Part shown: positions 9,752 to 57,953 of the stretch, piece after piece
Layout of the letters: the number at the start of each line of letters is the position of its first letter
Numbering within the stretch: position 1 is the stretch's first letter
DNA from: an uncultured Thermoleophilia bacterium
GTDB taxonomy: Bacteria; Actinomycetota; Thermoleophilia; Gaiellales; Gaiellaceae
DNA length: 64,000 nt
Direction: 5' to 3'
Assembly: GCA_963716435.1 (NCBI GenBank)
Contig: OY970312.1
Location: forward strand, 985,576-1,049,575
The notes under the pieces: model-generated
What the model was told of the DNA's origin: nothing
The model's input: the letters and a program-made list of their open reading frames with translations, nothing else
Database searches by the model: none
Position numbers and translations under genes: made by a program

Positions 9752-9899
9752 AGCCGCACGGACGGGCCGGGTGCCCGGCGCACGACCCGTGTCGCTGAGC
9801 GCGCGAGTATAGACCAGGAATGTCAGCGGTTCATCAGGTCTCCGGACTGCCAGGCTCTAGACTGACGCGGCCTCCGTTCGAAACCGGTGGGCTTTGCGA

Positions 9900-14927: not shown

Positions 14928-17018
14928 GTGAAACAGGTGACGCATCGCCTGCGCGACGGGCGGATCGAGGTGCTCGACGTCCCCAGGCCCGAGTTGCGGC
15001 CCGAGGGGGTGCTCGTGGACGTGCGCGCCAGCCTCGTGAGCGCGGGAACCGAGCGGCGCACCGTGGAGACGGGGCGCAAGAACCTCCTCGCCAAGGCGCG
15101 CGCCCGGCCCGACCAGGCCAGGCTCGTGATCGACAAGGCGCGGCGCGACGGAATCGGCTCGGCCGCGAAGGCCGTGCGCTTCCGGCTTGGTCAGCCCGCG
15201 CCGCTCGGCTACTCGGCCGCCGGCGTCGTGCTCGCGGCCGGGAGCCGCGTGACCGACCTCGTTCCCGGCGATCGCGTCGCCTGCGCCGGGGCCGGGTTCG
15301 CCACCCATGCGGAGATCGACTACGTGCCCGCCAATCTCGCTGTGCCGATCCCGGACGGCGTCTCCTTCGAGGACGCGGCTTTTGCGACCGTCGGGGCGAT
15401 CGCGCTCCACGCCGTCCGCCAGGCGGACGCACGCCTGGGCGAGCGCGTCGCCGTGATCGGGCTCGGTCTCGTCGGCCAGCTCGCGGGGCAGATCCTCCGG
15501 GCGGCGGGCTGCCGGGTCGTTGGGATCGACCTCGACGCGTCGCTCGTGGAGCGGGCCCTCGCGGACGGCGCGGCCGACGACGCCTTCCGGCGCGAGGCCC
15601 TCGACGGAGAACTCCCGGCTGCCGCCACCGGCTGCGACGCCGTGCTGATCACCGCTGCGACCTCCTCGGCCGACCCGGTCGAGCTCGCCGCGCGCCTGAG
15701 TCGCGACCGCGGGCGCATCGTCGTCGTGGGCGACGTCGGCCTCGACGTTCCCCGCGACGCCTACTACGACAAGGAGCTCGAGCTGGTCGTCTCCCGCTCG
15801 TACGGGCCCGGCCGCTACGACGCCGACTACGAGGAGCGCGGGCTCGACTACCCGATCGGCTACGTCCGCTGGACGGAGCGGCGCAACCTCGCCGCGTTCC
15901 TCGACCTCGTCGCCGCCGGGAAGGTGCGCGTCTCCGAGCTCGTTACGGCGCGCATTTCCGTGGACGAGGCGCCGGAGGCCTACGACGCGCTCGTCGGCGC
16001 CGATTCGTCGCCGCTCGGCGTGCTGATCGGCTACGAGCCGGTCGCGGCCCCGCCCGCGCTGGTCGAGCCGACTCCGGCCGCCGGGCCTCCGTTGGCCGCC
16101 GGCGTGATCGGCGCGGGAAACTTCTCCGCCGCCGTGCTCATCCCGGGGCTCGCGGGCGCGGGCTTCACGCTCGAGGCGGTCGCGAGCGCGAGCGGTCTGA
16201 CCGCGCGGGGAGCCCAGGATCGGTTCGGCTTCGCCCGCGCGCTCACCACGGACGAGCTGATCGCCGATCGCGGCGTCGGGCTCGTCGCGGTCGCGACGCG
16301 GCACGGATCGCACGCCTCGCTCGCCGCGCGTGCGCTGCGCGCCGGAAAGTCCGTCTTCGTCGAGAAGCCGCCGGCGCTGACCGAGGAGGAGCTCGACGAC
16401 CTCACCGCGGCCCGTGCTGCGGGAGGCGCGCTCACCGTCGGCTTCAACCGCCGGAACGCCCCGTTGGCCGCGGCGCTACGCGATTTCCTCACCGGCCCGT
16501 TCGAGCTCCTCTACCGCGTGAACGCCGAGTCGATCGACGCCGGCCACTGGCTGAACGACCCGGACGACGGCGGCGGACGTCTGCTCGGCGAGGGCTGCCA
16601 TTTCGTCGACTTCGCCTGCTGGCTCGCGGATGCGCTGCCGACCCGCGTGACCTGCGCGCTCAGCCCGGCGCCGGGCCGACCGCTCGCGGCCGCGGAGAGC
16701 TTCACGATCCACCTGGATTTCTCGGACGGATCGACTGCGACGATCGTCTACGGCTCGCAGGGCGACCCGAAGCTCGGCAAGGAGCGCATCGAGGCGCACT
16801 CCGCGGGCCGCTCGGCCGTGCTCGACGACTTCGAGCGCCTCGAGCTGCACGGCGACGGCCGCACCCGCACGAGCAAGTCCCGCCGCGACAAGGGCCACAC
16901 GGCGCAGTTCGCCGCGCTCGCCGCCGGGACAACGCAGAGCCCGGACCCGCTCGCCACGATGGCGGTCACGCTGGCCGCGCTGCGCTCCGCCGAGACCGGC
17001 GAGACGGTCGCGCTCTAG
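14928..17018 (+). CDS. Bi-domain oxidoreductase (MDR/alcohol dehydrogenase-like plus Gfo/Idh/MocA)
   Basis: GTG start at 14928 (VKQVTHRLRDGRIEVLDVPRPEL). VAVIGLGLVGQLAGQ Rossmann motif in the first half. The second half has AGVIGAGNFS ... and the VFVEKP motif of the Gfo/Idh/MocA family. Confidence 0.8.
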   Translation: MKQVTHRLRDGRIEVLDVPRPELRPEGVLVDVRASLVSAGTERRTVETGRKNLLAKARARPDQARLVIDKARRDGIGSAAKAVRFRLGQPAPLGYSAAGVVLAAGSRVTDLVPGDRVACAGAGFATHAEIDYVPANLAVPIPDGVSFEDAAFATVGAIALHAVRQADARLGERVAVIGLGLVGQLAGQILRAAGCRVVGIDLDASLVERALADGAADDAFRREALDGELPAAATGCDAVLITAATSSADPVELAARLSRDRGRIVVVGDVGLDVPRDAYYDKELELVVSRSYGPGRYDADYEERGLDYPIGYVRWTERRNLAAFLDLVAAGKVRVSELVTARISVDEAPEAYDALVGADSSPLGVLIGYEPVAAPPALVEPTPAAGPPLAAGVIGAGNFSAAVLIPGLAGAGFTLEAVASASGLTARGAQDRFGFARALTTDELIADRGVGLVAVATRHGSHASLAARALRAGKSVFVEKPPALTEEELDDLTAARAAGGALTVGFNRRNAPLAAALRDFLTGPFELLYRVNAESIDAGHWLNDPDDGGGRLLGEGCHFVDFACWLADALPTRVTCALSPAPGRPLAAAESFTIHLDFSDGSTATIVYGSQGDPKLGKERIEAHSAGRSAVLDDFERLELHGDGRTRTSKSRRDKGHTAQFAALAAGTTQSPDPLATMAVTLAALRSAETGETVAL

Positions 17019-40260: not shown

Positions 40261-40364
40261 TCGCTCGGAACTCTGCCCGGGCCGCCGGATGGAGCTGGAT
40301 CGGGCGCGCATGTGCCTCGATCCGATAGCCAGCAATGTGCCCCTCTCGTACGATGCTTCGGGCC

Positions 40365-43328
40365 ATGCCTGACGTAGTCATCGAGAACCCGATTCTGAAC
40401 TCGCCGTTTCGCGAGCCTGCGCGGCACTGGCGCTTCGGGGACACAGGGATCACGAACGAGATCGTCGAAGGGCGCCGGCTGAGCTCGTACTTCATGCCGA
40501 TCCCGGCCTCGAAGGTTCGCGGTAAGCAGCTCGAGCTCGAGACGCAGTGGACGCGCGATCGGATCGAGGAGAACCGGCTGATCAACCAGATCCGTGAGCG
40601 TGTCACCGACTGGCGCAACCTCAACTGGCCCGGTGTGACGCCGACCACCCGGCGCCTGCTCGAGTACTGGACGGACGAGACCCGGGAGCGGCCGTTGTTC
40701 TTCTGCCAGGTCGAGGCGCTCGAGACGGCGATCTATCTGACCGAGTGTGCGACCAAGCAGGGGGACGCGTGGATCGAAAATGAGCTGCGCAGGCTGGCCG
40801 ACGACCAAAACCCTGGGCTCTACCGGGTGGCTTTCAAGATGGCGACTGGAAGTGGCAAGACGGTCGTGATGGCGATGCTGATCGCCTGGCAGACGCTGAA
40901 CAAGCAGGCCAATCCGCAGGATGCGCGGTTCTCCGACGCCTTCCTCGTCGTCGACGCCCGGGATCACGATCCGTGATCGGCTCCGCGTCCTGTTGCCTGA
41001 GGATCCCGAGAACTACTACCGAGCGCGCGATATCGCCCCGAGCGCCGACATCGAGCGCTTGCGCCAGGCCCGGATCGTCATCACGAACTTCCACGCCTTC
41101 CAGCTGCGCGAGGCGCAGGTCGCGTCGAAGACGACGAAGGAGCTGCTCACGCGCGGAGGCGAGAACCCGTTCGTGGAAACGCCGGATCAGATGGTGCGCC
41201 GGGTCTGCCGCGGCCTCGGCACGAAACGACAGATCCTCGTCTTCAACGACGAGGCGCACCACTGCTACATGCACCGCGTGGGCGGCGAGGAGGAAGCGCT
41301 CAAGGGAGATGAACGCAAAGAGGCGGAGCAGCGCGACCGCGAGGCGCGGGTCTGGGCGACCGGCCTTCAGGCGGTCACTCGCAAGCTCGGCGTCAAGGTC
41401 GTGTACGACCTCTCCGCTACGCCGTTCTTCCTGCGCGGCTCCGGGCTGGCCCGAGGGAACGCTTTTCGGCTGGGTCGTCAGCGACTTCTCGTTGATCGAC
41501 GCGATCGAGGCGGGGATCGTGAAGATCCCGCGCGTCCCTGTCGCCGACGACGTTGTGGACAAGGCGGGACCGACCTTTCGGAACCTGTGGCCCAAGATTC
41601 GGAACGAGCTTCCGAAGAAGCGAGTGAAGGACGCGTCCGCCCGAGCCGCCGCGACTCCCTGCCGAGTTGGAGGCGGCGCTGCACGCGCTGTACGGCAACT
41701 ACGAAAAGTCGTACCAGGATTGGGAGAAGCGCGAGCAGGCCGCGCGGCGCGGCACCACGCCGCCCGTCTTCATCGTCGTGTGCAACAACACGAGCGTCTC
41801 CAAGCTCGTCTACGACTACGTCGCTGGTTGGGAGAAGCAGCTCGACGACGGAAGTCGGGTCGTCGTGCCGGGCGAGCTGCCGCTTCTCTCGAACGAGGAA
41901 GGCGGAGCGTTCATCCATCGCCCGCGGACGATCTTGATCGACTCGCGGCAGCTCGAGTCGGGGGAGGGGATGAGCGCGGACTTCAAGGCGATCGCGGCCG
42001 GCGAGATCGAGGAGTTCAAGCGCGACTACCGCACCCGCTATCCCGGCCGTGACGCCGACGCGCTCACCGACGAGGATCTGTTGCGGGAGGTAATGAACAC
42101 GGTCGGCAAGCCCGGCAAGCTCGGCGAGCACGTGCGGTGCGTCGTCTCCGTCTCGATGCTCACCGAGGGCTGGGACGCGAACACTGTCACCCACATCCTG
42201 GGCGTCCGCGCCTTCGGGACGCAGCTCCTTTGCGAGCAGGTCGTCGGCCGAGGTCTACGACGGACGAGCTACGTGCCCAACGACGATGGACTCTTGACGC
42301 CTGAGTACGCAGAGGTCTACGGCGTGCCGTTCAGCTTCATTCCGACATCAGGCTCGGCAACGGATCCGCGACCGGCGCCGGTCATGACTCGGGTGCGCGC
42401 GCTGCCGGAGCGGGCGGCATGCGAGATTCGCTTCCCCCACATCGTCGGTTACCGCTACGAGCTCGACGGTGAGCGGATTGGCTGGAGCTTCGGCGAGGAG
42501 CATCGGCTCGTGCTCTCGACGCAGGACGTCCCTACGGAGACCGAGGTGGCCGGAATCATCGGCGAGCACGACATTCACGACCTCGAAGGGCTGAAGGCGC
42601 GCCGAGAGCAGGAGATCGCGTATGCACTTGCCCGCGAGCTCGGCGCCCGGTACTTCTCGGACCGTCCGTGGCTTTTCCCTCAGCTCGTAGAAGCGACGCG
42701 CGATTGGATGCAGACTTCCCTGACCCTGCACGATCGCGTCTTCCCGCAGCTGCTCCTCCTTCACGAGAAAGCGAGTGAGGCGGTCGAGCGGATCGTGCGT
42801 GGGATCCTGTCCGCCGATCGGAGCGCGCCTCGGCTCATCGCGATCCCCGACGCAGCCGATCCCGAGGGCTCGACGGCGGAGATCGACTTCGACACGTCCA
42901 AGCCCGTCATGGTCACGGACCCGGAGAAATGTCACGTCGAGTACGTCACGGGCGACTCGAACTGGGAGCACGTCCTCGCTAGTCGGCTCGAAGGCATGCC
43001 CGAGGTGCGCGCCTACGTGAAGAACCAAGGGCTTGGTTTCACGATTCGGTACACATTCGACGCAGAGTCGCGCGCATACGTCCCCGACTTCATCGTCAAA
43101 GTTGATGACGGACACGACGACGACCTCCTCAACCTCGTGATCGAGGTCACCGGACAGGCGCGCCCCGACAAGGTCGAGCGCGTTGCGACTGCCCGGGAAC
43201 AGTGGGTTCCCGGCGTGAACGCCCTCGGCCGGTTTGGCCGCTGGGACTTCATCGAGATCACCGATCCCTGGAATGCAGAGAACGCAATTCGCACCCACCT
43301 CTCCTCGCATGAGGAGCTCGCTGCGTGA
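40365..43328 (+). pseudogene. res: Type III-like restriction enzyme Res subunit (SF2 helicase), 3 frameshifts
   Basis: N-terminal VIENPILNSPFREPARHW. Walker A MATGSGKT. DEAH box FNDEAHHC. Motif VSMLTEGWDANTVTHILGVRAF ... QVVGRGLRR. The reading frame moves 0>1>2>0 near 40955, 41445 and 41650. Confidence 0.8.
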
Positions 43329-46020
43329 GCCCGCGGAAGCGAGCAACCAAGTCGGGGCCGACGCCGGTCGAGCCGATCCGTCACAAGGACAAACGATCCA
43401 ACATCCCCACGAACGAGCTGCGCGCCATGCTCGCCGACGACGAGCGCACGCCGAAGGCGATGCTGTACCCGCGTGACCCGAGCCTCGACCCGCAGCTCGT
43501 CTGGAAGGGCAAGGACGAGCAGGACGCGGCCGACCTCGAGGTGCCGGCCGTCCCGATCTACATCCAGGAGAAGATCCACCCGCGGGTGCTCATCGAGAAC
43601 CTGCGCCAGACGGCGGCCGCCGGCGAGCCGGAGCCCGAGCTGACGCTCTTCGACGACTTCAACGGCATCGCCGTTCGAGGAACTCGTCGACTTCTACCAG
43701 CACGAGCAGAACTGGTCGAACCGGATGATCCTCGGCGACTCGCTGCTCGTGATGACGAGCCTCGCCGAGAAGGAAGGCCTCAAGGGCAAGGTCCAGACGA
43801 TCTACATCGACCCGCCGTACGGCATCAAGTTCGGCTCGAACTGGCAGGTCTCGACCCGCAAGCGCGACGTCACGGACGGCAAGGCTCAGGACGTCACCCG
43901 CCAGCCCGAGCAGGTCCGGGCGTTCCGCGACACCTGGGAGCTCGGCATCCACTCCTATCTGACGTACCTGCGCGATCGGCTGGTCGTCGCGCGCGACTGC
44001 TCACCGAGACGGGCTCGATCTTCGTCCAGATCGGCGACGAGAACGTCCACCTCGTCCGCTGCGCTGCTCGACGAGGTATTCGGAGCCGAGAACTTCGTCT
44101 CGCCTGATCACGTTCAGGAAGACAGCTGGCGCAACGGGCGAGTCTCTCGCAGGCACGGCCGACTATCTCCTCTGGTATCGCGAAGGATCGTCGAACGTGA
44201 AGTACCGCGCGCTCTATCGACCCAAGGAGGTCGGCGGAGACGGTGCCGATGCGTACGACCTGCTTCGACTTGGCCGATGGGTCGACGCGTCGTATCACCC
44301 GCGACGAGCGTCGAGATGTCGCTCGACTTCCGCCCGGGTCGCGTCCGTTCCGAATCGAGCCCTCTGACAAGTCAGAGCGTCGGGCGCCAGAAGGGCGAAG
44401 GCGCGGCTTCATGGTTCGCCGTGCCGTTCGACGGGCGCGAGTTTCGACCGACCATGCAGGAGCGGTGGAAGACGAACGAAGCGGGTATGGCGCGGCTCGC
44501 AGTCAGCCGAACGAATCGGCCGTAGCCGGGAACACCCTTCGGTACATCCGGTACATCGACGACTTCCCAGCGTCCCCACTCACAAACATCTGGGACGACA
44601 CAGGAGTAGCGGGCTTCGGTGAGCGCAAGATCTACGTCGTTCAAACCAATCCGAAGGTCGTCGAGCGCTGCCTCCTCATGACGTACTGACCCTGGCGATC
44701 TCGTGCTCGACCCGACGTGTGGCACCGGCACGACGGCGCTACGTCGCGGAGCAGTGGGGTCGGCGCTGGATCACGATCGACACCTGCCGCGTCGCGCTCG
44801 CGCTCGCGCGCACGCGCCTGATGGCGCAAGTACCCGTACTACCTGCTCGCCGACTCGTCCGAGGGCTCCGAAGGAGGCCGAGCTGACCGGCAGATGCCGT
44901 CGACCAGCCGACGGCGACGTTCGCAGGGCTTCGTCTACAAGCGCGTGCCGCACGTGACGCTGAAGTCGATCGCGCAGAACCCGGACATCCACGAGGGCAT
45001 GAGCCGCGAGGAGATCGACGCGGCGATCGCTCGGCACGCCGAGACCGGAGACGCTGTTCGACCAGCCGTACGAGGACCGCAAGAAGGTGCGCGTCACGGG
45101 CCGTTCACGGTCGAGAGCCTGTCGCCTCACCGGACGCTCGACGGCCGAGGACCGCCGCGCCCGCGGACGTTGCGGAGTCGGCGAGCAGCGCTTCGTCACC
45201 GACGATCCTCGACAACCTTCGCAAGGCCGGCGTCCAGAACACCGTGAAGGACGAGCACCTCGACTTCGACTGGCTCGATCCGTACCCCGGCGCCTGGGTC
45301 CAGGGCGTGGCGCGTTCACCGACGCGGACGGCGCGGAGCAGGACGGTCGCCGTCAGCATCGGTCCGGAGTACGGCACCGTCGGATGCCGACCAGGTGCGC
45401 GAGGCCGCGAAGGAGGCGAGCAAGGGCGCGGGCGCCGACCTGCTGCTCGTGTGCGGCTTCGCCTTCGACGCGAACGCGGGTGAGATCGCGCAGGAGTTCC
45501 AGCCGATCGATGGTTCGGGCTGGGCGGTCGCCGCGGGCGAGCGCAAGCTCGGCAAACTCCAGGTCCTGCTTGCGCGCATGAACCCCGACCTCGCGATGGG
45601 CGACGAGCTTCTGAAGAAGACCGGCGCCGGCAATCTGTTCATGGTCTTCGGCGAGCCCGACGTCGAGATCCGCCGGCCGGAGGACGGCCATCGTTCAGGT
45701 CGAGATCCGCGGCGTCGACGTCTACGACCCGACCACGGGCCAGGTCCGCTCGAGCATCGACCGACGACATCGCCTGCTGGTTCATCGACACCGAACTACA
45801 ACGGCGAGAGCTTCTTCGTCCGCCACGCGTACTTCACCGGCGCCGACGACCCGTACGACACAGCTCCGCAGAGCCCTGCGCGCCGACATCGACGAGGCGG
45901 CCTGGGCGACGCTCTACACGACGGTGAGCCGCCCGTTCCCGGCCGCCCGAGACCGGCAAGATCGCGGTGAAGGTCATCAACCACTACGGCGACGAGGTGA
46001 TGAAGGTCTTCACCGTGTAG
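43325..46020 (+). pseudogene. mod: Site-specific DNA methyltransferase (Mod-like, DPPY motif), at least 8 frameshifts
   Basis: GTG start overlaps the res stop (GTGA). Recognisable pieces lie in different frames: [83 protein letters not shown] and the C-terminal KIAVKVINHYGDEVMKVF. Confidence 0.8.
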
Positions 46021-46179
46021 CTACACCAGGCACCGGTGGGCGTCCGACTGGATCACCCCCAGGAGGTCGACGGTTCGAGTTCGGCTAGCTCCATCGCCCC
46101 GCTGCGCGGGCATGCCGTCTTCCGCGGTGTCCTTCGCCGCGAGCCGGTGAGCCGCGCCCCGTCGCGCGGTCGCGGCGGC

Positions 46180-47584
46180 GTGACGCGACATGCAAGACTT
46201 GACCCGTTCACTCGCGTGTCGTTCCAGCCGAGCCCGTTTCAGCTTGTCGCCGAAGAGCGGCTCCTGAACGAACCGATCTACAGGAAGGCGCGCGACAAGA
46301 TCGTCGAGTTCATCACGCAGTTGCAGGCGGCGCGGAAGCCGCAGGACTATGTCGGGCTGCACCGCAGCGCGCTGGCGCACCTCATCGCTTACCAAGAGGC
46401 CGCTGACGAGGCCATCGCGCAGCGGATGGAGATCCGCCGCCGGATCCGGGAACTCGCGCGCGAGGAACCGAAGCCGATCGAGGCCATTCAGGAGCAGCAG
46501 GCGCTGCTCGACCGCGTCGTCAACCAGGAGGCGACCCTGAAGGCCGTACACCATCTAGTCCGCGCCGTCGGCGATGGCATCGCCTGGCGAGCGCTGCGCT
46601 ACGACCGCCGCGCCTTCACGGTGCTCGGCAAGGGCGAACGCGTTGGTCGTTTGGCCTCAGGTATCGGTCGCGACGCCGAGCTGACGGCGCTCGCCAACCT
46701 CTGGGAGGAGGAGGGGCAGTTCGCAATCCACAACGACATGACCAACTGTCTGCGTCATGGCGACCTGACCGCCATTCGAGAAGCCGGCAGTCAGGTCGAA
46801 GTGACGATCTACGAAGTCAAGGCGGGGACGTCTCACGACGAGGCGCAGCTGCGACGGCTCGACAGGGCGACCGAGCTACTGCGAACGCACCTCGACCCGA
46901 CCGGCGGCAGCGACGGCGGCATGCTGCGAGTGACGTCGGTACCGGCGCGCTACGAGACGTTCTCATCTGCGCTACCCGGTCTGATTCAGCGGGCCAAGGC
47001 GGTGGGATTCGATTGGATCCTCCCGCACCCGTGCCTACTCGTCGGCGCCGTCGATTACCGCGTGTGGGGCCGCGGCGACGTTGATGACTTCACTGAGCGC
47101 TTCGCGAAGATGCGGGCCGAGGTTGGCTGGCCAGGAGAGGAACCCGAGATCCTCGACTGGATGTCCTCGCTGCGGCGCATGCGCGACCGCCACCACAGCT
47201 TCAGCTCGCTGGCTCCCTTTGCGATCTTCCCGCTCGCGCCCGAGGATGTCGCCGATGTCATCTCGGGGTCGATCGATCTCTTCTTCTCGCTTCACCTGCC
47301 GCGGCTCGAGCAGGCCTCGAGCCGGGATGGTGTCAGCGTCCGAGTTGCCCGCCCCCCTGGATCGTCGACGCTCTTCCTTGAAGCCAGCCGCGGCGGACGC
47401 GGTGTGACCGTGCCGCCACACTTGCGCGAGCAGATGATGACCGAGCTTCGTCACGCCCGATTGCATCTTCGCTGCCATCGACGAGATCCTGAAGCTGAAC
47501 GAGGCGAACCCGGGCGAGGCATACGACAGCCGCATCGTTGTCTTCGCCGACGAGCGGCAAGTGTGGGAGGTCGAGAACACGTAG
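46180..47584 (+). CDS. PD-(D/E)xK-like hypothetical protein, one frameshift near the 3' end
   Basis: AIHNDMTNCLRHGDLTAI ... VEVTIYEVKAG fits a D...ExK nuclease core (D at about 46762, EVK at about 46813-46821). Near 47445 the sensible reading switches frame (...MMTE / VTPDCIFAAIDEILKLNEANPGEAYDSRIVVFADERQVWEVENT*). The start is uncertain (GTG 46180 or 46216). Confidence 0.5.
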
Positions 47585-47716
47585 GGAGCGGGCCGCTTCG
47601 GCCACGCAGCGGACCGCAAACCGCCTGGCCGCGCTAGCAAGAAAACCTCGAGCCCCTTCTAAAGGAAACGTGATCGCGATCGACGCCCCATCTGAAGCTA
47701 CTGCTTCAATCAGATC

Positions 47717-48751
47717 GTGAGCTGGCAAGACCGCCTTCCCGATGGACTCTCCGACATCGAAGCGACCGAGGAGGGGTTTCAGGCGAGCCTTTCGCTTCCG
47801 GTCGACGGCGACGGCTTCTTCGGCCGCGAGTGCCGCGCCTGTGAGCAGCCGTTCAAGATGAACGCCGACGAGTGGGAGGCGCTCCCCGACGACCCACGAG
47901 TCACGTGCCCGTACTGCGGCGAGCAGCCCGAAGATGCCAACGACTTTATGACACCGGATCAGCAAGAGCGGGTCGGGGCCGCGATCAACGCGCTGGCCGA
48001 GCAATACGTGCACGGGGCGTTCACGGACACGCTCTGGCAGTCGTTCGGCTCGCGGCCACGCCGAACGGGTGGCGGCATGTTCGGCATCGAGATCAGCGTC
48101 GCTACCGGAGCGCCGCCCCCAATCAGGGTGCTGCCCGAATACGTCGAGGAGAAGGTGCGACGAACGATCACCTGCAGCAACTGCTCAACGACTTACGCTG
48201 TCTACGGGGCGAGCGCCTTCTGCCCAGTCTGCGGCCCGCGCGCAGCGCTTGCGACCGTCATCGAGGCGATCGAGGCAGCACGCACCGCCCTTGGCCTGGA
48301 GGATCTCCTCCCCGAGGACGCGCGTGAGCAGGCGCGTGCCGCAGGTGTCTTCGGCAACGTCGCCGCCGACACGATCAAGCGCGTCGTCACCCTCTTCGAG
48401 GTCTTCGCCCGGAACCAGCTCGAGGAGCGAGTATCGACTCACGTCGACCCGCTGCGGAAGGCGGGACGCGGCGTGTTCCAGCGGCTGGACGATGCTGACG
48501 ATCTCTTCGATCAGCATGCGGGACTGCGGCTCTCCGCACTGGTCAACAGCAAGACGTGGGCGCGCCTGCTCGTGACATTCCAACAGCGGCACGTGCTCGT
48601 TCACCGCCAGGGGCTGATCGACGACCAGTACCTCCAGCGCGTGCCCGCGGCTCGCCAACGAGTCGGGCAGGCTCTCGTCGTGACGCGCAAAGAGGCGGAG
48701 CAGGCGCTCGACGATCTCGAACGGCTCGTGCACGCACTCGCCTCGACGTAG
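47717..48751 (+). CDS. Double zinc-ribbon protein with a C-terminal HEPN-like domain
   Basis: CRACEQ...CPYCG and CSNCS...CPVCG ribbons. The C-terminal helical domain ends in FQQRHVLVHRQG, which matches the HEPN Rx4-6H motif (nt 48587-48604). Confidence 0.6.
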   Translation: MSWQDRLPDGLSDIEATEEGFQASLSLPVDGDGFFGRECRACEQPFKMNADEWEALPDDPRVTCPYCGEQPEDANDFMTPDQQERVGAAINALAEQYVHGAFTDTLWQSFGSRPRRTGGGMFGIEISVATGAPPPIRVLPEYVEEKVRRTITCSNCSTTYAVYGASAFCPVCGPRAALATVIEAIEAARTALGLEDLLPEDAREQARAAGVFGNVAADTIKRVVTLFEVFARNQLEERVSTHVDPLRKAGRGVFQRLDDADDLFDQHAGLRLSALVNSKTWARLLVTFQQRHVLVHRQGLIDDQYLQRVPAARQRVGQALVVTRKEAEQALDDLERLVHALAST

Positions 48752-48764
48752 CGATGCTGGCTGC

Positions 48765-49562
48765 GTGATTTGCGAAACGACATCAGGAGGCGACATCCGG
48801 CCGGAGATCGTGTCTGCGTTCGAGCCGCAGTTCGCCGCCTGCGACGCTCTGTACGAGTTCGCCCGCTCGCACCGACCCAGCCGGTCTGCGGCATCCGTGC
48901 CTGCGGACCGTCTGATCGTCGCGACGTATGCCCGCGGCTCGAAGACCTACCAGGGTGTACTGCGGCTCGCCTACGTCGGTTACGGCGCCCAGGCGTTCAT
49001 GCTCGGCCGCTCGCTGTACGAGGACATGCTTGTCGCACACTGGATCAAGCTCAATCCTGAGCAGGCGCCTCGGCAGCTCAACGACCATCGCCGCATGACC
49101 ATTGCCGCCTACCAGGGGGAGCTGAGCAGATTCGGGCTGGATGCGCCAAACGAGGAGCCGATCAACCGGGCGGAACGCGACCGGCTACGTCAGGAGTTTG
49201 GCTCTGGACCTTGGACGAAGCTGAGCATGGACAAGCTGCGGCGCGCAGTCGAGTCGGAGTTTCCGGAGCTGGAAGGCCACCGGCGGCTCCTGCTCCAGGT
49301 CGACGCACTCTTGCACCGTCACGCGAACCTCATTGTCCACCACTCGTTCTTGAGCTTGGGCGGTGCCGTGGCAAACGCGAGCGAGGATGGCATTACCTAC
49401 GACGTCGGCGTCTCGACGCGTTTCATCCCGCAGGCGCTCTTCATCGCCTTCTTCAGCTACATCCATCTGACGAGCCTGGTCGTACACGGCAGCGCGCGGG
49501 AAGAGCTCGCGCAGCTGTGGCACGAGCATCGCGACGCATTCACGGTGACACGAGCCGCCTAG
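48765..49562 (+). CDS. DUF5677/AbiV-like helical protein
   Basis: Starts 13 nt after the HEPN gene stop. All-helical, with the motif GRSLYEDMLVAHWI reminiscent of DUF5677/AbiV-family proteins. Assignment by eye. Confidence 0.45.
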   Translation: MICETTSGGDIRPEIVSAFEPQFAACDALYEFARSHRPSRSAASVPADRLIVATYARGSKTYQGVLRLAYVGYGAQAFMLGRSLYEDMLVAHWIKLNPEQAPRQLNDHRRMTIAAYQGELSRFGLDAPNEEPINRAERDRLRQEFGSGPWTKLSMDKLRRAVESEFPELEGHRRLLLQVDALLHRHANLIVHHSFLSLGGAVANASEDGITYDVGVSTRFIPQALFIAFFSYIHLTSLVVHGSAREELAQLWHEHRDAFTVTRAA

Positions 49563-49777
49563 CGTTGGGCCGCGAGGGGAGCACGGCCGCGGCAGCTCGT
49601 TCGTCGCGCGCCCGCGCTCCGAACTGCGACCTGCCGGGGCGCTGCCGTGGTCAACTTCTGGTCAAATAGCCGCGGCAAACAATCACAAAGCGCCTGGCGG
49701 CAGAAGCGGCATGGATGACGCCGCCGAAGGTCTGACCGCGGCGCCCTCGGTCGGCGTCTTGTTCGGGGACGCCGTTG

Positions 49778-49810: not shown

Positions 49811-50026
49811 ATGGTGCAGGTCGATTCGCGAACCGATCTCGTGATCGCTACCGACATTGCGAAGCGGCTCGCGATCTCGCCCCAGCGGGTTTACGTGCTC
49901 GCATCCGGATCCGGCTTCCCGAGGCCGCTTGGCATGCTCGGCCGCTCGGCCGTCTGGCGCTGGAGCAGCGTCGAGCGGTGGGCGCGCGAGACCGGCCGGC
50001 TGCCGGCCGACAACGCCGCCGTGTAG
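49811..50026 (+). CDS. AlpA/excisionase-family HTH protein
   Basis: 71 aa. IATDIAKRLAISPQRVYVLASGSGFPRPLGMLGRSAVWRWSSVERWA matches the pattern of MerR-like excisionase/AlpA DNA-binding domains. Confidence 0.7.
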   Translation: MVQVDSRTDLVIATDIAKRLAISPQRVYVLASGSGFPRPLGMLGRSAVWRWSSVERWARETGRLPADNAAV

Positions 50027-50091: not shown

Positions 50092-53000
50092 TCAATCAGT
50101 GACTTTCGTGGCCGGCGCTTCCACGCCGTGCGAGGGGAACCGCACCTCCAGAGCCGACCGGCGGCCCGTGATCCCGGCAAGCGTCACAGACGTGCTCGGC
50201 TTGAACTCGAGCGTTCGGAGCGGATTCGGAAAGATCTTCACCACCGTGTCGTAGCCTTCCTCGAGGCCGGCAACGACAGCGAGAAAGAACTTGTCCCCCT
50301 CCAAAAACGCGCGCTCGGCCTCGTTCGCCGTGAGGGTGATGTCGTCCGGTAGTGGCCCATAGGTGGCCTTGAGTTCGAAGTAGCGGCGAAGCTTGTCGAG
50401 CGCGTCTGCGCCGACGCCGCGCAGATGACGATAGTCGCGCAGCCCGGCGGAGTCGCCGTTGATTGCGAGCTGCAGCACTTGGAGGGCGAGATCCTCCCTC
50501 TCCTCATCGGAGTAGGCCAATGGCGCGGTCCGGGGTGCCGGCCTCGAGCCAGCGATCGGCTTGCCCGCTGGAACGTCGTCCCTTAGGCCGCGCCGACGGC
50601 TCTTCTTGCCCTCGGCCCCGTTGCTGCCATCAGTCACGCCTACGACTTTCTCGCTGAGATCCTCGATCTGCTTCAGCCGTCTCGCCGGGAGCAAGCGCTC
50701 CGTGGTCGCGCCAGCTCTCGTCGTCACGAGATCCCGCTCGGTCTTCGCGCGCTTCTCGACCGGCGTCGAGCTCTTTGCTTGCTCGAACAAGGACGTGAGG
50801 GCTTCTCCGTCGGCGCTGTCCTGGACGAGCGTAACCGCTCCCCTCTCCCCCTTCGCCGCCCTATCCCATGAACGGCTCCACGCAAGTGCGAGCTTGTCCC
50901 GATCCCCCTCAGTAAAGAGGGCGGCGATCACCCGGCCGCCGGCGTCGTCTTCACCGGCCGCCTCCGCGTCAGCGAAGTAGAACGTGAGCGGCGTTCGCGT
51001 CAAGTGGGCGCGGGCGGGAACGGACACTGGCGCTCGACGGTTCAGCCGAAGCTCAATCTGCAGGTGCGGATCGAGCGCGATTCGGGCGCGTGCAAGTTCC
51101 TCCCAAGGCGTCGAACACGCTTCGAAGAGCTTTGGATCGTGTCTCGTCAGCCAGTCGCGCAAGAGTTCGACGGCTGCACCGAACCGTCGCTCTAGGGTTG
51201 CGCCACCGACGAACGCTTGCTCGTGAACGACGGCGTCGAAGTCGCCCTCCGTAAGGAGCAAGGCAGCGGCGGCGCCGATCAAACGGGGCACTGCCGGCGG
51301 TGCGACGGAAAGCCTCCAAACCGCAAGGCGAGACGACAGCGCATTCCCGACGTCCTCATCCGCTATGACATAGATAGGGCGATCGGTCTGCCACCCGACG
51401 CCGGTCCGAAGGGGAAGATTCCGCAAGCGAGCCAGCTCCCGGCTCGAGGCCTCCGCAACATGCGCCTCAAGGTAGAGGTAGACGTTGACGAGGATCTGCT
51501 CGTCCTCCTCATCGGGGGTTCCTCGAGCGATCTCAGCCAGTACATCGATGCAATCGCTGACGGAGGGCGGAACGATTCGTAGGGCGCGCCAAAGCCGCTC
51601 GGCCGCGGAGCGCTCCGAGACGAACGGTCGGCGACCGCCGAAGATCGGCGCGCCGAGGAAGACTGCGGAAGGTGGCAGCCAGCGGCCGTTCGCGTAGACC
51701 AGGCCGGGCTTAGTACGGTGGGTGCCGAAGCGGGCCCGGAGTTTCCGCATCGGCAAGTCACCGACCATGTCGTCGGGCGACGGCTCCCTCTTCTTGCAGG
51801 CCGCAGCAATGGCCGCGTACCGCAGCATCAGCATCCGTTCATCAAGCGGGCCGCCGTGGTCACGCAGGGTCGCGAGCTGCTCGACCATCTCGCTCACCTG
51901 AGGGTCGGTCTCGATTCGGAGCGCTCGCACGGCCGGCGAGGGAGCGTCTCCCTCATCGAGTTCGTATGCGAAGGAACTCCGGTCGTCGCCGAGGATCGCC
52001 TCGGTCGCCGGCGTCCGTACCGCCAGGTCGCGCGGCGCCTTCTTCTTGCCGTCCTCGCTTGTGAGCCAGGGCTCGTCCATGGCCTCGGCAAGCCAGGACG
52101 CCGGGATCGTTCCTGCGCGGTGCCAACTCCCGTACGACCAGACGGCGTCCGCCTGGGTGTGCGGCGCATACAGACGGTCCCACTCCCGCTCAAGCGTCGA
52201 CAGCAGAGCGCGAGCCCGCTCGCGGCGGGCGCGCAGCCCGCGTTCGCGCTGTAGATCCTTGAGCGCCGCGTGCAGGTCGGGCGAAAGTCGGTCTCCTTTG
52301 AGATGAGTGGCGTGGCGCTCCAATCCCCGGAGCGCCTCGATCTGGGGCCGCGCGAGCAGGTGCGGCTCGATCGGGCTCGCCGGATCGCCGTAGCGCGTCT
52401 CCACGCGGCTCGGCGCGACAAGCCTTGGCGCCGCCTCGGCACCGAGGAGGCCGAAGAACGCGCGAGCCGCGAGCGGCCTCGGAGCGCCGGAACCGGCCCG
52501 CCGCCTGCCCGGTCGACGAAGGACATCTTCGTAGCGAGGATGTATCCAACCCAGCCCCGGCGCCCGACCGGCTGCCTTGCTCCACCCATCTCGACGATCC
52601 TCGATCGACGCCGGCAAGTAAGAGTCCGCGGGACGTCCCACGCGCGTAACGCGCTTCGAGCCATCCCAACCCTGGACGTCGACCGCGATCACCCGGCCGA
52701 CCGCTGACCCGAACTCCTGCTGTATGCGCTGGTCGAGCGCGGCGAATGCGTCGCGCATGAGGCGAAGCTCGTCGTCATCGATGCGAAGCGGTTCGTCTTC
52801 GTCGTCACGCGAGGCGAGCGCTCGGAGCGTGCTCTCAGGATCAGGAGCGTCCCTGAGCATTTCGTTCTGCTCGAGCCATTGCCTGACTACGACCGCATCG
52901 GTCCAGCGAGAGAGGTAGACGGGATCGATTACGTGTGCCAGCCCGATGCGGGCAGCGAGCGAGTCGTCGTGAGCCGAGCGAAGGAGCAGTTCGCCCTCGA

Positions 53001-54747
53001 CGTCGGCCATCGGCGGGACGATTCGATTGCCATTGGCCGCGACCACCGATCGCAGCGACCAGAGGGTGTTGCCGAGGTCGGCCTCGATCGCCGCGCGGGC
53101 AAGCTTGATGAACCAGCGTACGTCGCGCGGGCCAAGGTCGTCGTCTTCCCAGTCGAGGAGCCTAAGGCTCTCCTCGACGTCGACCAAGCTTGCCCCTCCG
53201 ATCTCGCCGAGGATCCTCCGCCAGCGCCCCTCGGGATCTCGCGCGGACCGCGGAAGCAGCGTCAGACCCGGTCGAAGGCCGCCGATTTCCTTCTGCGTTA
53301 GAAGTCCATCTACCGCCTCTGCCTCGTACGCGAGGGTCCGCAGCCGCCGTTCCTCTCCAGTGATGCTGATCCGGAAGCTGCGGCGTACGCGTGCTTGTAC
53401 CGACCCGACGAGTTCGGCTATGCGGTCCGCGACCCATGCATCGGCGGAGAAGGCTTGCTCCGCCCGCTGCGGGATAGCTCTCCATGCTGTCGCGGGGTTG
53501 TTTGCAAGCCGCTCGAGCGCGACAGATGCGGTCAGCTCCGCGAGGCGCTCGAACAGCCACGCATTCAGGGGCTCATGTTGAATCCCGCGCCGAGCGACGT
53601 CGATATCGAACTGCGCGTTGACGCTGAGCGGAAGCTGAGTTCCCACGCCCAACGGCAGCCCTGCGTAGATCTGGCCTGGATCGCTCTGAGCGGGCACGGC
53701 GACGGCGATCGGCGTCGTGTCCTCTCGCGCCTTGTACCGGCGGTGAAGGCTCGGCGGCATCCTCCGCTCGATCTCGTACCGCTGCCAGGAGCGACTGCTT
53801 CGTGGCGCGCGGAGTGTCGTGCGTCGACATGACTCCTTGATTCCGGGCAGAGTGAGCGTTTCGGTCGTGACCTCGGCGAGCCGGTGATTGATCAGGGCCT
53901 TCCGACGCCCGATCGAGACGAGCCGAAGAGAACGCACTGTGTCTAGAAAGACCAGTGACTCGGAGCCGAGCGAGGCGAACCAGGTCTGGAATTCGTCGGC
54001 ATCGAAACCCTCCCGCAACCGAAGTTCGAGCAGCGTCTCGGTCGAAGCCGAGTTGTAGAAAGCAGGAATCGACCGCGCACGCTGCGCGGGTCGCACGTGG
54101 TTCCCGGTGATCGCGAAGTCATAGGGCGCACAGTGAACGGTGAGGCTGTCGCCGAGGCGCCCAAGGGTCTTTAGCCCGATCCCGAAGCGGCCTTTTGCAC
54201 GGGGGTCGTCACGCTTTGTTGAGACGAAGGCGAGGGTCATCGCGATCACGTGATGCAGATGCACCCGCTCTCCGTTGTGGGCGATCAAGAGTCGGCCATG
54301 CTTCCCTGATCTCCGGATCGCGACCCGAACCTCAGACGCATGCAAGTCATCGGCGTTCTGGACGATCTCGATGAGCCCGTGGAACGACTCGACATTGAGC
54401 TGCTCCGCGCTCATCTGCGCGCCCTCCAGAACCTCGCGCAGCACCCCCGGAGCCCCGAGCTGAAGTTGCTCAAGTTCGCCGAGCGCCGCGTGAGCGAACG
54501 CCGGAGTCAGAGGGTCGTGGACTTCGCCTGCGCGAAGTCCGAGTCGCCAGAGACTCTGAGCCGCTTCACGACCTAGCTCGGCTTCCGGCCCTGTTTCTGC
54601 CCCGTGGTCCGTCGCGTCGTTCAAGGTCACCCCGATAGAAGACTCCGCCTCTAGTCTCGCACCCGCTCGATTCCGAGCAAAGGCTCCGGAACGCAGACAC
54701 AGGTTCACCCTTCGGGTGGGGAGGCAGGCCACCGGCCGCTTTCGCAT
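50092..54747 (-). CDS. Giant sacsin-like GHKL (HATPase) protein with a C-terminal DUF3883 (PD-(D/E)xK-like) domain
   Basis: Uninterrupted 4656-nt ORF. N-box LIEIVQNADD (nt about 54346-54369). G-box KGRFGIGLKT. Sacsin-repeat-like YAGLPLGVGTQLPLSVNAQFDIDVARRGIQHEPLNAW. C-terminal GVGADALDKLRRYFELKATYGPLPDDITLTANEAERAFLEGDKFFLAVV fits DUF3883. The true start may be GTG 54630. Confidence 0.8.
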   Translation of the reverse strand: MRKRPVACLPTRRVNLCLRSGAFARNRAGARLEAESSIGVTLNDATDHGAETGPEAELGREAAQSLWRLGLRAGEVHDPLTPAFAHAALGELEQLQLGAPGVLREVLEGAQMSAEQLNVESFHGLIEIVQNADDLHASEVRVAIRRSGKHGRLLIAHNGERVHLHHVIAMTLAFVSTKRDDPRAKGRFGIGLKTLGRLGDSLTVHCAPYDFAITGNHVRPAQRARSIPAFYNSASTETLLELRLREGFDADEFQTWFASLGSESLVFLDTVRSLRLVSIGRRKALINHRLAEVTTETLTLPGIKESCRRTTLRAPRSSRSWQRYEIERRMPPSLHRRYKAREDTTPIAVAVPAQSDPGQIYAGLPLGVGTQLPLSVNAQFDIDVARRGIQHEPLNAWLFERLAELTASVALERLANNPATAWRAIPQRAEQAFSADAWVADRIAELVGSVQARVRRSFRISITGEERRLRTLAYEAEAVDGLLTQKEIGGLRPGLTLLPRSARDPEGRWRRILGEIGGASLVDVEESLRLLDWEDDDLGPRDVRWFIKLARAAIEADLGNTLWSLRSVVAANGNRIVPPMADVEGELLLRSAHDDSLAARIGLAHVIDPVYLSRWTDAVVVRQWLEQNEMLRDAPDPESTLRALASRDDEDEPLRIDDDELRLMRDAFAALDQRIQQEFGSAVGRVIAVDVQGWDGSKRVTRVGRPADSYLPASIEDRRDGWSKAAGRAPGLGWIHPRYEDVLRRPGRRRAGSGAPRPLAARAFFGLLGAEAAPRLVAPSRVETRYGDPASPIEPHLLARPQIEALRGLERHATHLKGDRLSPDLHAALKDLQRERGLRARRERARALLSTLEREWDRLYAPHTQADAVWSYGSWHRAGTIPASWLAEAMDEPWLTSEDGKKKAPRDLAVRTPATEAILGDDRSSFAYELDEGDAPSPAVRALRIETDPQVSEMVEQLATLRDHGGPLDERMLMLRYAAIAAACKKREPSPDDMVGDLPMRKLRARFGTHRTKPGLVYANGRWLPPSAVFLGAPIFGGRRPFVSERSAAERLWRALRIVPPSVSDCIDVLAEIARGTPDEEDEQILVNVYLYLEAHVAEASSRELARLRNLPLRTGVGWQTDRPIYVIADEDVGNALSSRLAVWRLSVAPPAVPRLIGAAAALLLTEGDFDAVVHEQAFVGGATLERRFGAAVELLRDWLTRHDPKLFEACSTPWEELARARIALDPHLQIELRLNRRAPVSVPARAHLTRTPLTFYFADAEAAGEDDAGGRVIAALFTEGDRDKLALAWSRSWDRAAKGERGAVTLVQDSADGEALTSLFEQAKSSTPVEKRAKTERDLVTTRAGATTERLLPARRLKQIEDLSEKVVGVTDGSNGAEGKKSRRRGLRDDVPAGKPIAGSRPAPRTAPLAYSDEEREDLALQVLQLAINGDSAGLRDYRHLRGVGADALDKLRRYFELKATYGPLPDDITLTANEAERAFLEGDKFFLAVVAGLEEGYDTVVKIFPNPLRTLEFKPSTSVTLAGITGRRSALEVRFPSHGVEAPATKVTD

Positions 54748-55072: not shown

Positions 55073-56125
55073 ATGCAGACCATCGAACAGCCCGTCCACC
55101 GGATCGAGGACGCGACCGCGCCGCTCTGGTTCGGCTCGCGGCCCGGCCGGATGGGGCGACGTCGTGCGCGCCGTCGAGCCCGGACGCAGGCGCACAGCGC
55201 GGCGGCGATGATCGACGCCGCCGGGCTGGACTGGACGGTCGAGCAGCACCCGCTCGAGGCCGTCGTCGAGCGCGAGTACCAGTCGCTCCGCGTGCCGGTG
55301 CCGCGCGCACGTCGCGAACGTCCGCAGCGACACGCGCGCCGTGCTCGGCGTCGTCGGCGAGGGCTACGAGCCGCTGCAGAACCGCGCCGCGTTCGCCTTC
55401 TGCGACGCGATCACCGACTCGGGGCGAGGCGCACTGGCTCGGCGCGGGCGCGACGCGCGGCGGCGCGCGCGTGCACGCGCTGATGCGGCTCGACCGCGAG
55501 ATCCGGATCGGCGGACGCGGAGGGGGAGGACGTGCTCCCGCTGCTCTGCTTCCGCAACGGCCACGACGGCGGCCTCGCCGTCACGGTCTCGCGTCGCGCC
55601 GTTCCGGCTCGCGTGCCTGAACGGGATGCTGCTCCCGCTCGACGGAGCGCGCAGCGCACCTGGAAGGCGCGCCACACGGCGAACGTGGAGGCGAAGCTCG
55701 CCGACGCGCGCCGCACGCTCGGGATCGCCTGGCGCTACTACGACGAGTTGGAGGAGGTCGGCGGGCGGCTGATCCGCGAGCGCGATGGGCGCGGCCGAGT
55801 TCGAGCGCTTCCTCGCCCGGCTCGTGCCGCTGCCCGAGCCGCGGCCCGATCGCGACGAACGGCGGGCGCGCCGTGCGCAACGTCGAGCGCGTGCGCGAGG
55901 CGATCCGCACCGCCTACCGGGCGACGCCCGACCTCGACGAACATCCGCGGCACCCGCTGGGGCGCGCTGCAGGCCGTCACGGCCTACGTCGACCACGTCG
56001 CAGCCGACCCGCGCGACCGCCGGCCGCACGCACGCCGGAGGCGCGCTTCGAGCGCGCGACCGAGCCGCAGCCGCTCAAGGACCGCGCGCTCGCAGCTACT
56101 GACCGAAGGAGGGACGCAGCCATGA
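55073..56125 (+). pseudogene. DUF932-family (phage/plasmid-like) protein, at least 5 frameshifts
   Basis: Pieces lie in different frames: AAMIDAAGLDWTVEQHPLEAV, VLGVVGEGYEPLQNRAAFAFCDAITDSG, DVLPLLCFRNGHDGGLAVTVS, APFRLACLNGML and RGTRWGALQAVTAYVDHV. Confidence 0.75.
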
Positions 56126-57953
56126 CCGCCACGCTGAGCATGGTTCCGCTGGCGAAGATCCGCCCGAGCGAGGACAACCCGCGCAGCGAGTTCGACGACG
56201 AGCAGATGGCCGAGCTGGTCGAGTCGGTGAAGCGGCACGGGATCATCACGCCGCTGACGCTCGCGCCGCGACGGCGAGGGCGGCTTCGCGATCATCGCCG
56301 GCGAGCGCCGCTACCGCGCGGCGAAGGCCGCGAAGCTCCGCGAGGTGCCCGCCCAGGTGCGCGAGGCCGACGGCGACGCGCTCACGCTCGCGGTCGCCGA
56401 GAACGTGATCCGCGCCGACCTCAGCCCGGTCGAGGAGGCGCGCGCGTACCGGCGGCTCGTCGACGAGCACGGCGACGCGGCGAAGGTGGCGAGGCTCGTC
56501 GGCAAGAGCGAGCGGCTGATCGCGCGAGCGGCTCGACCTCCTGCGCCTCCCCGACGAGGCGCAGGAGCTGCTCGCCGGCGCGCAGGGTGCCGCTCGCCTG
56601 CGCGCCGGCGCTCGTCCAGATCGCGGAGCGCGAGCCGCTGCTCGCCGACCTCGACGGCGGCATGGCTCGCGGAGCGCCCGCACGACGCCGCGCGCTTCCC
56701 GGCCGACCCGGGCGAGGTCGTCGGACGACGTGCTCGCGCGCCGAGTGGCACGACGACGAGGGCGAGCCGCTGCACCCGGTCGCCTACAGCGTCGGCGGCT
56801 ACTACGGGCCGATCCTCCCGCGCGGCCGCGCACGCGAGGACGCAGCTCGCCGGCCGTGCTCGCGAAGCTCGGCGCGCACGCGGAGGCGGTCGCGGCCGCG
56901 CTCGCGGCGCTGCCCGAGATCGCGCACGCGTCCGAGTACGACTGGCAGGCGCGGCGAGGCCGAGGAGGAGCGCGCAGCGCGACTGCTTCGCGCTCGACGA
57001 CGACGACGCCGACGCCGCGCGCGCGTTCGGCTGCCTGCTCGAACTGCCCGGCCGCGAACGGACGCGGCGATCACCGCTACGTCACCGATCCCGAGTGGCT
57101 CGCGGATCGGCTCGTGCAGAAGATCGCCGCCCACGCGAGCGGCGAGGCCGAGCGCGAGCACGCCGGGAGCGCGAGCGAACGCGCTGCCGAGCCGCCGCGG
57201 ACGACGCCGAGAAGGAGGCCCGCCGCCAGGAGCGCGAGCGCCACTACGAGGAGCGCGTCTCCGCCCGGGCGCGCAACCTCGACCTCGGCGCGGCGCTCGC
57301 GCGGTGGCAGCCGAAGCTCGACACCGACGCGGTGAAGCTGCTCGGCTCGCTCGTCCTGACTCCACTACGGGAAGGCGGCGGCGTGGGCGCACCGGCTCTG
57401 CGTCGAGCAGCCGACGACGACGAACAAGCAGGGCAAGGTGACCGTCCGCTACCCGCGCGGCGCGCAGGCCGAGAAGCAGCAGCACGAGGCAGGCGCTCGC
57501 CGCGCTCAAGCGCGCCCGGACGCCCGAGGCCGCGCTCGCGGTCGTCCTGCGCCTGCTCGTCGCGCAGCGGCTCGCCGACACGGCCGGGCTGCCGAACGCC
57601 GACCGGCAAGGCATCTACGAGCCGCAGGAGCTGGCCGACTCGCCGCGTGCTCGACAAGCTCGCCCGCGCGTCGCGCCGCCCTCGGTCAAGCAGCACCTCG
57701 CCGAGCAGGAGGCCGAGCGCGAGCGGCGCGAGCAGGCCTGCCGAGCGAGCAGGCCGCGCGGCTCAGCGAGCAGCGCGCGAAGCTCGCCGCAGGCGAGCCG
57801 TCCGCTGCGAGTGCTGCCTCGCCCGATCGAGAGCCGAGCAAGCCGCCGAGAAGCACGGCGCGCTCGTCCACGCCGGCGACTGCGAGCGCAGTGGGGCAGC
57901 GCCTCGACGACGACGAGCGAGACCGCATGATGCACCGTCCGCCCGACTACTAA
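56122..57953 (+). pseudogene. ParB/Srx-like nuclease-domain protein, at least 4 frameshifts
   Basis: ATG overlaps the DUF932 stop (ATGA). LSMVPLAKIRPSEDNPRSEFDDEQMAELVESVKRHGIITPL, then in another frame FAIIAGERRYRAAKAAKLREVPAQVRE ... ENVIRADLSPVEEARAY. Later pieces lie in further frames. Confidence 0.75.

Follow-up and report, generated by a model that had tools for sequence, protein, structure and literature searches.

A zinc ribbon-HEPN-like protein and a DUF5677 protein encoded side by side in a Thermoleophilia defence island are probably separate single-gene cassettes

A 64,000-nucleotide stretch of contig OY970312.1 (assembly GCA_963716435.1, positions 985,576 to 1,049,575 of the forward strand; hereafter the window), from an uncultured Thermoleophilia bacterium of the family Gaiellaceae, carries two adjacent genes on its forward strand that we call gene A and gene B. 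Gene A (47717..48751), taken from the list of open reading frames (ORFs), encodes a protein of 344 residues from a GTG start; gene B (48765..49562) encodes an all-helical DUF5677 protein of 265 residues, likewise from a GTG start. A sequence-only reading had proposed that the two form a novel two-gene abortive-infection (Abi) system, a proposal that the present analysis does not support. We favour instead, with a probability of about 0.6, the reading that A and B are two separate single-gene defence cassettes of the abortive-infection type that lie head to tail here, because their pairing is limited to a clade in which gene A is at least 85% identical and is absent from about 25 further gene A loci and from five gene B loci. 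The simplest and most likely account is that the two genes were juxtaposed once, recently, and were then inherited together.

The new part of this result is modest, namely a large, cross-phylum and uncharacterised family in which two zinc ribbons precede a HEPN-like domain that is missed by current Pfam models.

Co-occurrence of genes A and B

Loci for comparison were assembled from metagenome contigs, look-ups of exact proteins and plasmids; a scan of genome contigs with a narrowed gene A alignment returned one weak partial match only. Gene B follows gene A within about 2-17 nt in the window, in two Logan contigs and in the loci L002, L016, L043, L044 and L045. Throughout these adjacent loci gene A is at least 85% identical, gene B is 82-94% identical, and a PD-(D/E)xK-like gene that lies upstream of A in the window, here called UP, is present at 86-91% identity. 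The order UP-A-B is collinear in six contigs (the window, L002, L016, L043, L044 and L045). In the window this block has type III-like restriction-modification (R-M) remnants upstream and AlpA-like and TmtA genes downstream, whereas in L043/L044 a helicase and an ORF6N gene lie upstream and APH/Tricorn-like genes downstream. Because the wider context differs in this way, UP-A-B appears to move as a block within the shallow clade of at least 85% identity.

Outside that clade the proposed module essentially fails the co-occurrence check that the sequence-only reading had set for itself. The hidden Markov model of the gene B family has no match in about 25 further gene A loci with readable downstream DNA. 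Gene B is missing from L031, where gene A is 84% identical and is accompanied by a DUF4407 gene upstream, a GDSL lipase gene downstream and CBASS and type I R-M genes nearby, and it is missing from every locus with downstream sequence in which gene A is at most 81% identical. Such loci include L032/L033 (gene A 70% identical), L034 (58%, with a transposase, a PD-Lambda-2_B-like gene and a TmtA homologue) and L035 (52%, with a TIR protein matching PDC-S35, an AAA_21 protein and an integrase); in L046 a gene A relative is found with MmeI-type and OLD-type genes. Five plasmids carry gene A relatives in the vicinity of a recombinase, PifA, a PLD-like gene and transposases, again without B, and across four phyla the gene A family occurs as a lone gene. 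Searches of the phage collection gave no match to gene A or gene B, and searches of the plasmids gave none to gene B.

The converse comparison gives the same picture, for gene A is absent from five loci that carry gene B relatives at 60-79% identity. There the gene B relatives adjoin Mrr_cat/NA-iREase genes, RE_EcoO109I-like and DUF429 genes, type I R-M genes or SIR2. In L036, L037 and L038 a gene B-related DUF5677 gene stands beside an RE_EcoO109I-like gene, joined in L037 and L038 by a DUF429 gene in the order RE_EcoO109I-DUF5677-DUF429 with gaps of no more than 50 nt. This RE_EcoO109I-like/DUF429 association could be the more usual partnership of gene B.

Three further observations concern the surroundings of gene A relatives. 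On the Sinorhizobium meliloti plasmid pSmeSM11a and related conjugative plasmids (L042, 3700..6948), a gene A homologue of 28% identity follows a full-length PifA gene (856 bits with the PADLOC model) after a gap of 28 nt. In L034 (9679..16533), the island that holds the gene A and TmtA homologues seems to split a ChlI/ComM-like Mg-chelatase gene, fragments of which lie at 9679-9993 and 16099-16533, and the site is a possible integration hotspot. A giant protein encoded beside the gene A homologue of a Phaeobacter plasmid was considered as a further TmtA and rejected, as it gave no tblastn or PADLOC match.

Within the window itself both ORFs are uninterrupted and separated by 13 nt, just as had been read from the sequence. 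GC content at third codon positions is 0.82 in gene A and 0.81 in gene B, and the codon-position GC is coding-like for a genome of ~70% GC; a word-indexed search gave 112 homologues for gene A, and gene B has 33. NCBI places the start of gene B 15 codons further downstream, which would give a protein of 250 residues. The longer ORF, and with it the 13-nt gap, is more likely to be correct, because the residues upstream of the NCBI start are conserved among homologues.

Transcription signals were sought in the same region. A terminator-like hairpin is predicted on the forward strand at 49752..49774, ~190 nt after gene B, and the same scan places no terminator-like site between A and B, so that the two genes are probably co-transcribed in the window; the scan found 3 such sites in all where 1.7 were expected, a count not above chance. 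No sigma-70-like promoter was found in 45.9-50.2 kb by a scan that leaves actinobacterial promoter types uncovered. Between 45 and 51 kb no Rfam family matches at E up to 0.1, and just two tandem repeats are present, both short and low-scoring.

Immediately 5' of the gene A start codon lies a leader of ~22 nt (47695..47716, forward strand; CTACTGCTTCAATCAGATC...) that is identical or near-identical in six loci, namely the window, L002, L003, L004, L016 and L031, the DNA further upstream being unrelated. This leader contains no Shine-Dalgarno-like sequence. It is the sole sequence that stays with gene A across unrelated contexts, and it may travel with the gene A cassette. Because the conserved 5' sequence stops ~22 nt before the start in loci that lack UP, the comparison suggests that gene A moves on its own. 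A small upstream ORF (47670..47720) overlapping the gene A start was dropped as a candidate, its start and frame being conserved in neither L002 nor L031.

Gene A: two zinc ribbons and a HEPN-like C-terminal domain

The gene A product consists of zinc ribbon 1 (C39, C42, C64 and C67; 47831..47917), a long helix, a disordered linker, zinc ribbon 2 (C153, C156, C169 and C172; 48173..48232) and a HEPN-like domain (residues 177-344; 48245..48748), all encoded on the forward strand. The cysteines of ribbon 1 are invariant or near-invariant in our alignments and those of ribbon 2 are invariant, and the evidence for the HEPN-like domain comes from an AlphaFold2 (AF2) model, Foldseek and a profile search. 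Thus the two CxxC...CxxC ribbons noted earlier are borne out by eight conserved cysteines, and the RHVLVH motif occupies residues 291-296 as it had been numbered.

The AF2 model has a mean predicted local distance difference test (pLDDT) score of 88.9, with every 10-residue block of the C-terminal half above 94. Its helices in that half span residues 177-197, 211-238, 278-296 and 324-343, with a helical insert at 243-268 between the second and the third. The motif R291-H292-V-L-V-H296 (Rx4H; 48587..48604, forward strand) forms the C-terminal end of helix 3, with R291 and H296 closing the helix 278-296. HEPN domains are defined as four-helix up-down bundles with an insert between helices 2 and 3, and their motif is expected where helix 3 ends (Anantharaman et al., 2013; PMC3710099). 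Residues 177-344 of gene A have this layout in the predicted model, in which E228 is the helix-2 residue. Overall we regard a HEPN fold for this domain as likely, and an RNase activity may reasonably be inferred.

The motif is also well conserved. A profile built from the C-terminal 169 residues and compared with 1.84 billion cluster representatives matched 1631 clusters at E≤1e-3 and 549 at E≤1e-10, most of which share the architecture of ~340 residues. Conservation was counted in 149 relatives, chosen as the best representatives at the 50% identity level, with identities to gene A as low as about 20%. R291 and H292 are each retained in 146/149 and H296 in 144/149, while F254 and Q255, both within the insert, are kept in 147/149 and 148/149; position 228 is E or Q in 135/149. 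The eight cysteines, F254-Q255, R291-H292, H296, G299 and D302 are each at least 96% conserved in this set. The same residues are invariant in plasmid copies from four phyla, found in Miltoncostaea (Actinomycetota), Phaeobacter and Sinorhizobium (Alphaproteobacteria), Aliarcobacter (Campylobacterota) and Emticicia (Bacteroidota). Alignments of 34 and 92 sequences agree, with the ribbon cysteines, F254, Q255, R291, H292, H296, G299 and Q318 invariant or near-invariant. The earlier assignment of gene A to the HEPN RNases with an Rx4-6H signature had made conservation of the arginine and histidine in homologues a check on itself, and that check came out in its favour; the predicted fold agrees with the assignment too, and a match to a HEPN sequence profile is the part that did not follow.

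Structural comparison gave HEPN toxins as the best but weak matches. The eight top Foldseek matches of gene A in the PDB are HepT/HEPN toxins (6m6u, 6m6w, 7bxo and 5yep, then 7ae6 and 7ae2), with probabilities of 0.54-0.97 and target-normalised template-modelling (TM) scores of 0.54-0.65 over ~167 columns, at E-values of only 0.2-1. The query was the whole two-domain model, which partly accounts for these weak E-values.

Family models recognise only the N-terminal half of the protein. Pfam and NCBIfam give zinc-ribbon matches alone, all below threshold (e.g. Pfam DZR and HypA), and the 112 homologues, nearly all of 330-350 residues, include none with a Pfam domain. Residues 22-174, which hold both ribbons, match positions 5-149 of the 152 positions of the PADLOC model PDC-M14A at E 1.5e-13, and 75 of the 149 family representatives match that model as well, the best at E 2.4e-25. 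Because these scores are moderate, the match reflects a shared domain and not membership of the same family. Among the scanned neighbours UP, B and TmtA, no PADLOC match to another PDC-M14 component was found.

Gene B: a DUF5677 protein

Gene B matches the Pfam family DUF5677 (PF18928) with 33.5 bits against a gathering score of 27.1 (E 5.6e-8), and DUF5677 is matched by 26/26 aligned sequences, comprising the window protein and 25 homologues above or near the cut-off. Two conserved motifs stand out. Residues 82-94 read RSLYEDMLVAHWI, with R82, E86, D87, H92 and W93 invariant, and R185-H-A-N188-L-I-V-H192 (Rx6H; 49317..49340, forward strand) has R185, N188 and H192 invariant in the 26 aligned sequences, giving the pattern RxxNxxxH. 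The AF2 model (pLDDT 85.7) places the Rx6H motif at the end of the long helix 169-191, which makes gene B HEPN-like in its predicted layout.

Of the label DUF5677/AbiV-like that the sequence-only reading had attached to gene B, the first part is secure and the second is not. AbiV of Lactococcus lactis is a HEPN RNase, and together with the abiV2 RNA it makes up a type III toxin-antitoxin pair (bioRxiv 10.1101/2024.05.05.592566; PDB 9bj6). Its chain 9bj6_A is the highest-probability PDB fold match of gene B (probability 0.69, TM scores 0.30/0.38, E 0.75), standing among helical-bundle noise. No PADLOC model, AbiV included, matches gene B at E up to 1; Pfam returns no family other than DUF5677 for it; the gene B family profile, compared with the PDB sequences, did not find 9bj6 or any other sequence match; and a comparison of the gene B fold with viral structures returned noise only. 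The link to AbiV is weak. An abiV2-type RNA antitoxin was sought in 45-51 kb and gave neither an Rfam match nor a convincing tandem repeat, in searches that an unstructured or novel RNA would escape.

We also considered whether A and B could be paralogous HEPN copies. At a detectable level they are not, since hhalign showed no relationship between the C-terminal domain of gene A and the gene B family.

The island, the competing readings and known systems

The GC content of the window falls from ~0.72 to ~0.66 across roughly 35-55 kb, and because of this drop genes A and B are placed inside a compositionally distinct island. Together with a PADLOC match to TmtA, it supports the defence-island setting that had been suggested. 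TmtA itself (50092..54747, reverse strand, convergent with A-B) is the gene that had been described as a sacsin-like giant, a description that proves correct and can now be made specific: the protein of 1551 residues matches the Tiamat model PDLC03968 of PADLOC with 1386 bits, residues 55-1535 aligning to positions 9-1478 of 1486, which is a full-length match. It contains an NCBIfam sacsin ATP-binding-like domain, the NCBI product is shorter (1440 residues), and its PADLOC matches are to TmtA models only.

UP (46036..47637, forward strand, mapped by tblastn) belongs to a family of ~455 residues with 63 homologues and without a Pfam or PADLOC match. The PD-(D/E)xK-like character ascribed to it earlier is upheld by a conserved D...ExK motif (D217 and E234-x-K236 invariant, L043 numbering), and its 3' end is frameshifted in the window. 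Near 47447 the window has one T more than L002, and as a result the final ~45 codons are out of frame; 5/5 related contigs (L002, L016 and L043-L045) use another frame for this 3' stretch, and an intact version would stop at 47582-47584. The indel may be a genuine frameshift or may stem from the assembly. UP accompanies A and B in the clade of at least 85% identity only, and no UP homologue lies beside any other gene A or gene B relative examined. In our preferred reading TmtA and UP, too, would be cassettes of this low-GC island that are independent of A and B.

Between gene B and TmtA lies a small gene (49811..50026, forward strand; 71 residues, called in related contigs as well) that resembles AlpA/HTH_17 excisionase-type proteins at sub-threshold Pfam scores and hints at a mobile-element origin for its part of the island; it adjoins the A-B pair and does not belong to it. 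At 40335..45970 type III-like R-M genes appear broken over several reading frames, comprising a ResIII fragment (40335..40976), an RE_endonuc-like ORF (41667..43328) and methyltransferase pieces with a DPPY motif (43325..45970), an arrangement that suggests pseudogenisation or assembly indel errors. On the flanks of the island (31596..34433; 55873..57441) stand a 945-residue RTX-repeat protein (HemolysinCabind, 17 repeats) on one side and a ParB_N-domain protein in a stretch of ~75% GC on the other.

These observations allow the competing readings to be weighed. As originally conceived, A would be a HEPN toxin and B its DUF5677 sensor or antitoxin, the two making an obligate Abi- or toxin-antitoxin-like module. 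The 13-nt gap with no terminator-like site in it, the recurrence of the tight A-B adjacency in L002, L016 and L043-L045, and the retention of the block in two differing wider contexts all speak for such a module, but every co-occurrence falls within one shallow clade, the 84%-identical L031 and all gene A loci of at most 81% identity with downstream sequence lack B, and gene B relatives at 60-79% lack A. Moreover, the gene A family stands alone across four phyla, and gene B has a HEPN-type catalytic motif of its own, which is unlike an antitoxin; we judge the obligate module unlikely. The larger functional unit that had also been raised could take the form of a three-gene system in which UP, A and B move as one, and the collinearity of the three in six contigs with two distinct flanking contexts fits that idea. 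It has the same shallow phylogenetic depth, however, with no UP beside the other relatives of A and B, and ~130 nt separate UP from A; UP is frameshifted in the window while A and B are intact, and the conserved 5' sequence of A ends ~22 nt before its start where UP is missing, all of which makes a triad improbable. Still harder to sustain is the notion that A, alone or together with B, serves Tiamat as an accessory. In the window 0.5 kb separate B from TmtA, and in L034 a 37%-identical TmtA lies 5.5 kb from the 58%-identical gene A, but a transposase and other genes intervene there, the L043/L044 relatives (at least 90% identity) lack TmtA in 5-7 kb of downstream sequence, most gene A loci have no TmtA, and the PADLOC Tiamat models are all TmtA. 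Tiamat was described as a single-gene system, and we give the accessory reading very little credence; TmtA is not part of an A-B unit.

Several points nonetheless weigh against the preferred reading of A and B as two separate HEPN-type cassettes. The loci used for comparison are mostly short contigs from metagenomes. Neither gene A nor any of its 149 relatives matches a Pfam HEPN family, and the relatives give zinc-ribbon matches only; no PDB sequence matches gene A, HEPN sequences included; and its Foldseek E-values of 0.2-1 are not significant. For gene B the fold search is mostly noise, and the ORFs that protected Enterococcus faecalis against phage did not include the DUF5677 gene that was tried there (PMC12632615). 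In addition, the short gap, the lack of a terminator-like site within it and the persistence of UP-A-B in two contexts leave room for lineage-specific coupling: A and B, possibly with UP, might constitute a newly coupled heteromeric system, one HEPN protein gating the active site of its partner or completing it. We think this a long shot; if true, the genes would be a multi-effector defence operon put together only recently and observed at an early stage of its evolution. A different doubt concerns gene A alone, the C-terminal domain of which might be a non-catalytic helical module for binding ligands or proteins, making gene A a zinc-ribbon regulator and not a nuclease. That no sequence model ties the domain to HEPN, and that the structural matches fall short of significance, would suit this view, but the R/H/H triad hardly varies and occupies exactly the place that is canonical in HEPN structures, helix 2 has a conserved E/Q, and the family occurs consistently in defence islands or on plasmids, so that we consider a non-catalytic role decidedly unlikely.

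Returning to the reading of A and B as independent cassettes, gene A would act as a sensor and effector in one polypeptide. Before infection its two-ribbon module, able to bind RNA, DNA or some phage-derived trigger, would hold the HEPN domain in check. On infection the HEPN domains would dimerise to create a composite, metal-independent RNase site from R291 and H296, with E228 nearby, and cleavage of cellular or phage RNA at this site would arrest translation and abort the infection. We infer trigger sensing, dimerisation, RNase activity and phage protection alike; the domain architecture, the conservation of the motifs, the predicted fold and the defence-island neighbourhood of gene A are matters of record. 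Gene B would most likely be a second, independent effector of the HEPN/RNase type, as its E86/D87 acidic pair and RxxNxxxH motif suggest.

Should the gene A family indeed defend, it would supply a compact one-protein immune module combining a zinc-ribbon sensor with a HEPN RNase, provide a role for the domain on which the untested PADLOC candidate PDC-M14A is based and extend HEPN by a family that escapes the present Pfam models. The family comprises about 1600 sequence clusters from at least four phyla, and it is found on conjugative plasmids and in defence islands. More generally, genes of a defence island that are spaced as tightly as in an operon cannot on that ground be taken for a functional pair if their pairing does not extend to distant relatives.

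Set against known systems, the neighbouring TmtA constitutes Tiamat, a separate known single-gene system. Gene B is contained in a catalogued Pfam family, DUF5677 (PF18928), a domain of unknown function. It resembles AbiV in being all-helical and in carrying its Rx6H at the end of a long helix, and differs in length (265 residues against 190 in the 9bj6_A chain). PDC-M14A shares with gene A the N-terminal half, which aligns to the whole 152-position model, and leaves the HEPN-like half uncovered; PDC-M14 is a PADLOC candidate only, with no mention found in the literature searched. Several HEPN families are on record with fused zinc ribbons (Anantharaman et al., 2013; PMC3710099), and such fusions embedded in R-M or defence loci are an already known theme. 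The nearest known counterparts of gene A are HEPN-superfamily toxins, above all HepT of the MNT-HEPN toxin-antitoxin systems (PDB 5yep, 6m6u and 7ae6). Gene A has in common with them the predicted four-helix up-down bundle, the insert between helices 2 and 3, the Rx4H closing helix 3, the acidic or polar nature of a conserved helix-2 residue and the defence-island context. HepT has an adjacent MNT nucleotidyltransferase antitoxin, whereas none adjoins gene A. What sets the gene A family apart from these HEPN toxins is its RHxxxH motif with the extra invariant H292, the invariant F-Q pair in the insert and the N-terminal double zinc-ribbon module, which is specific to the family.

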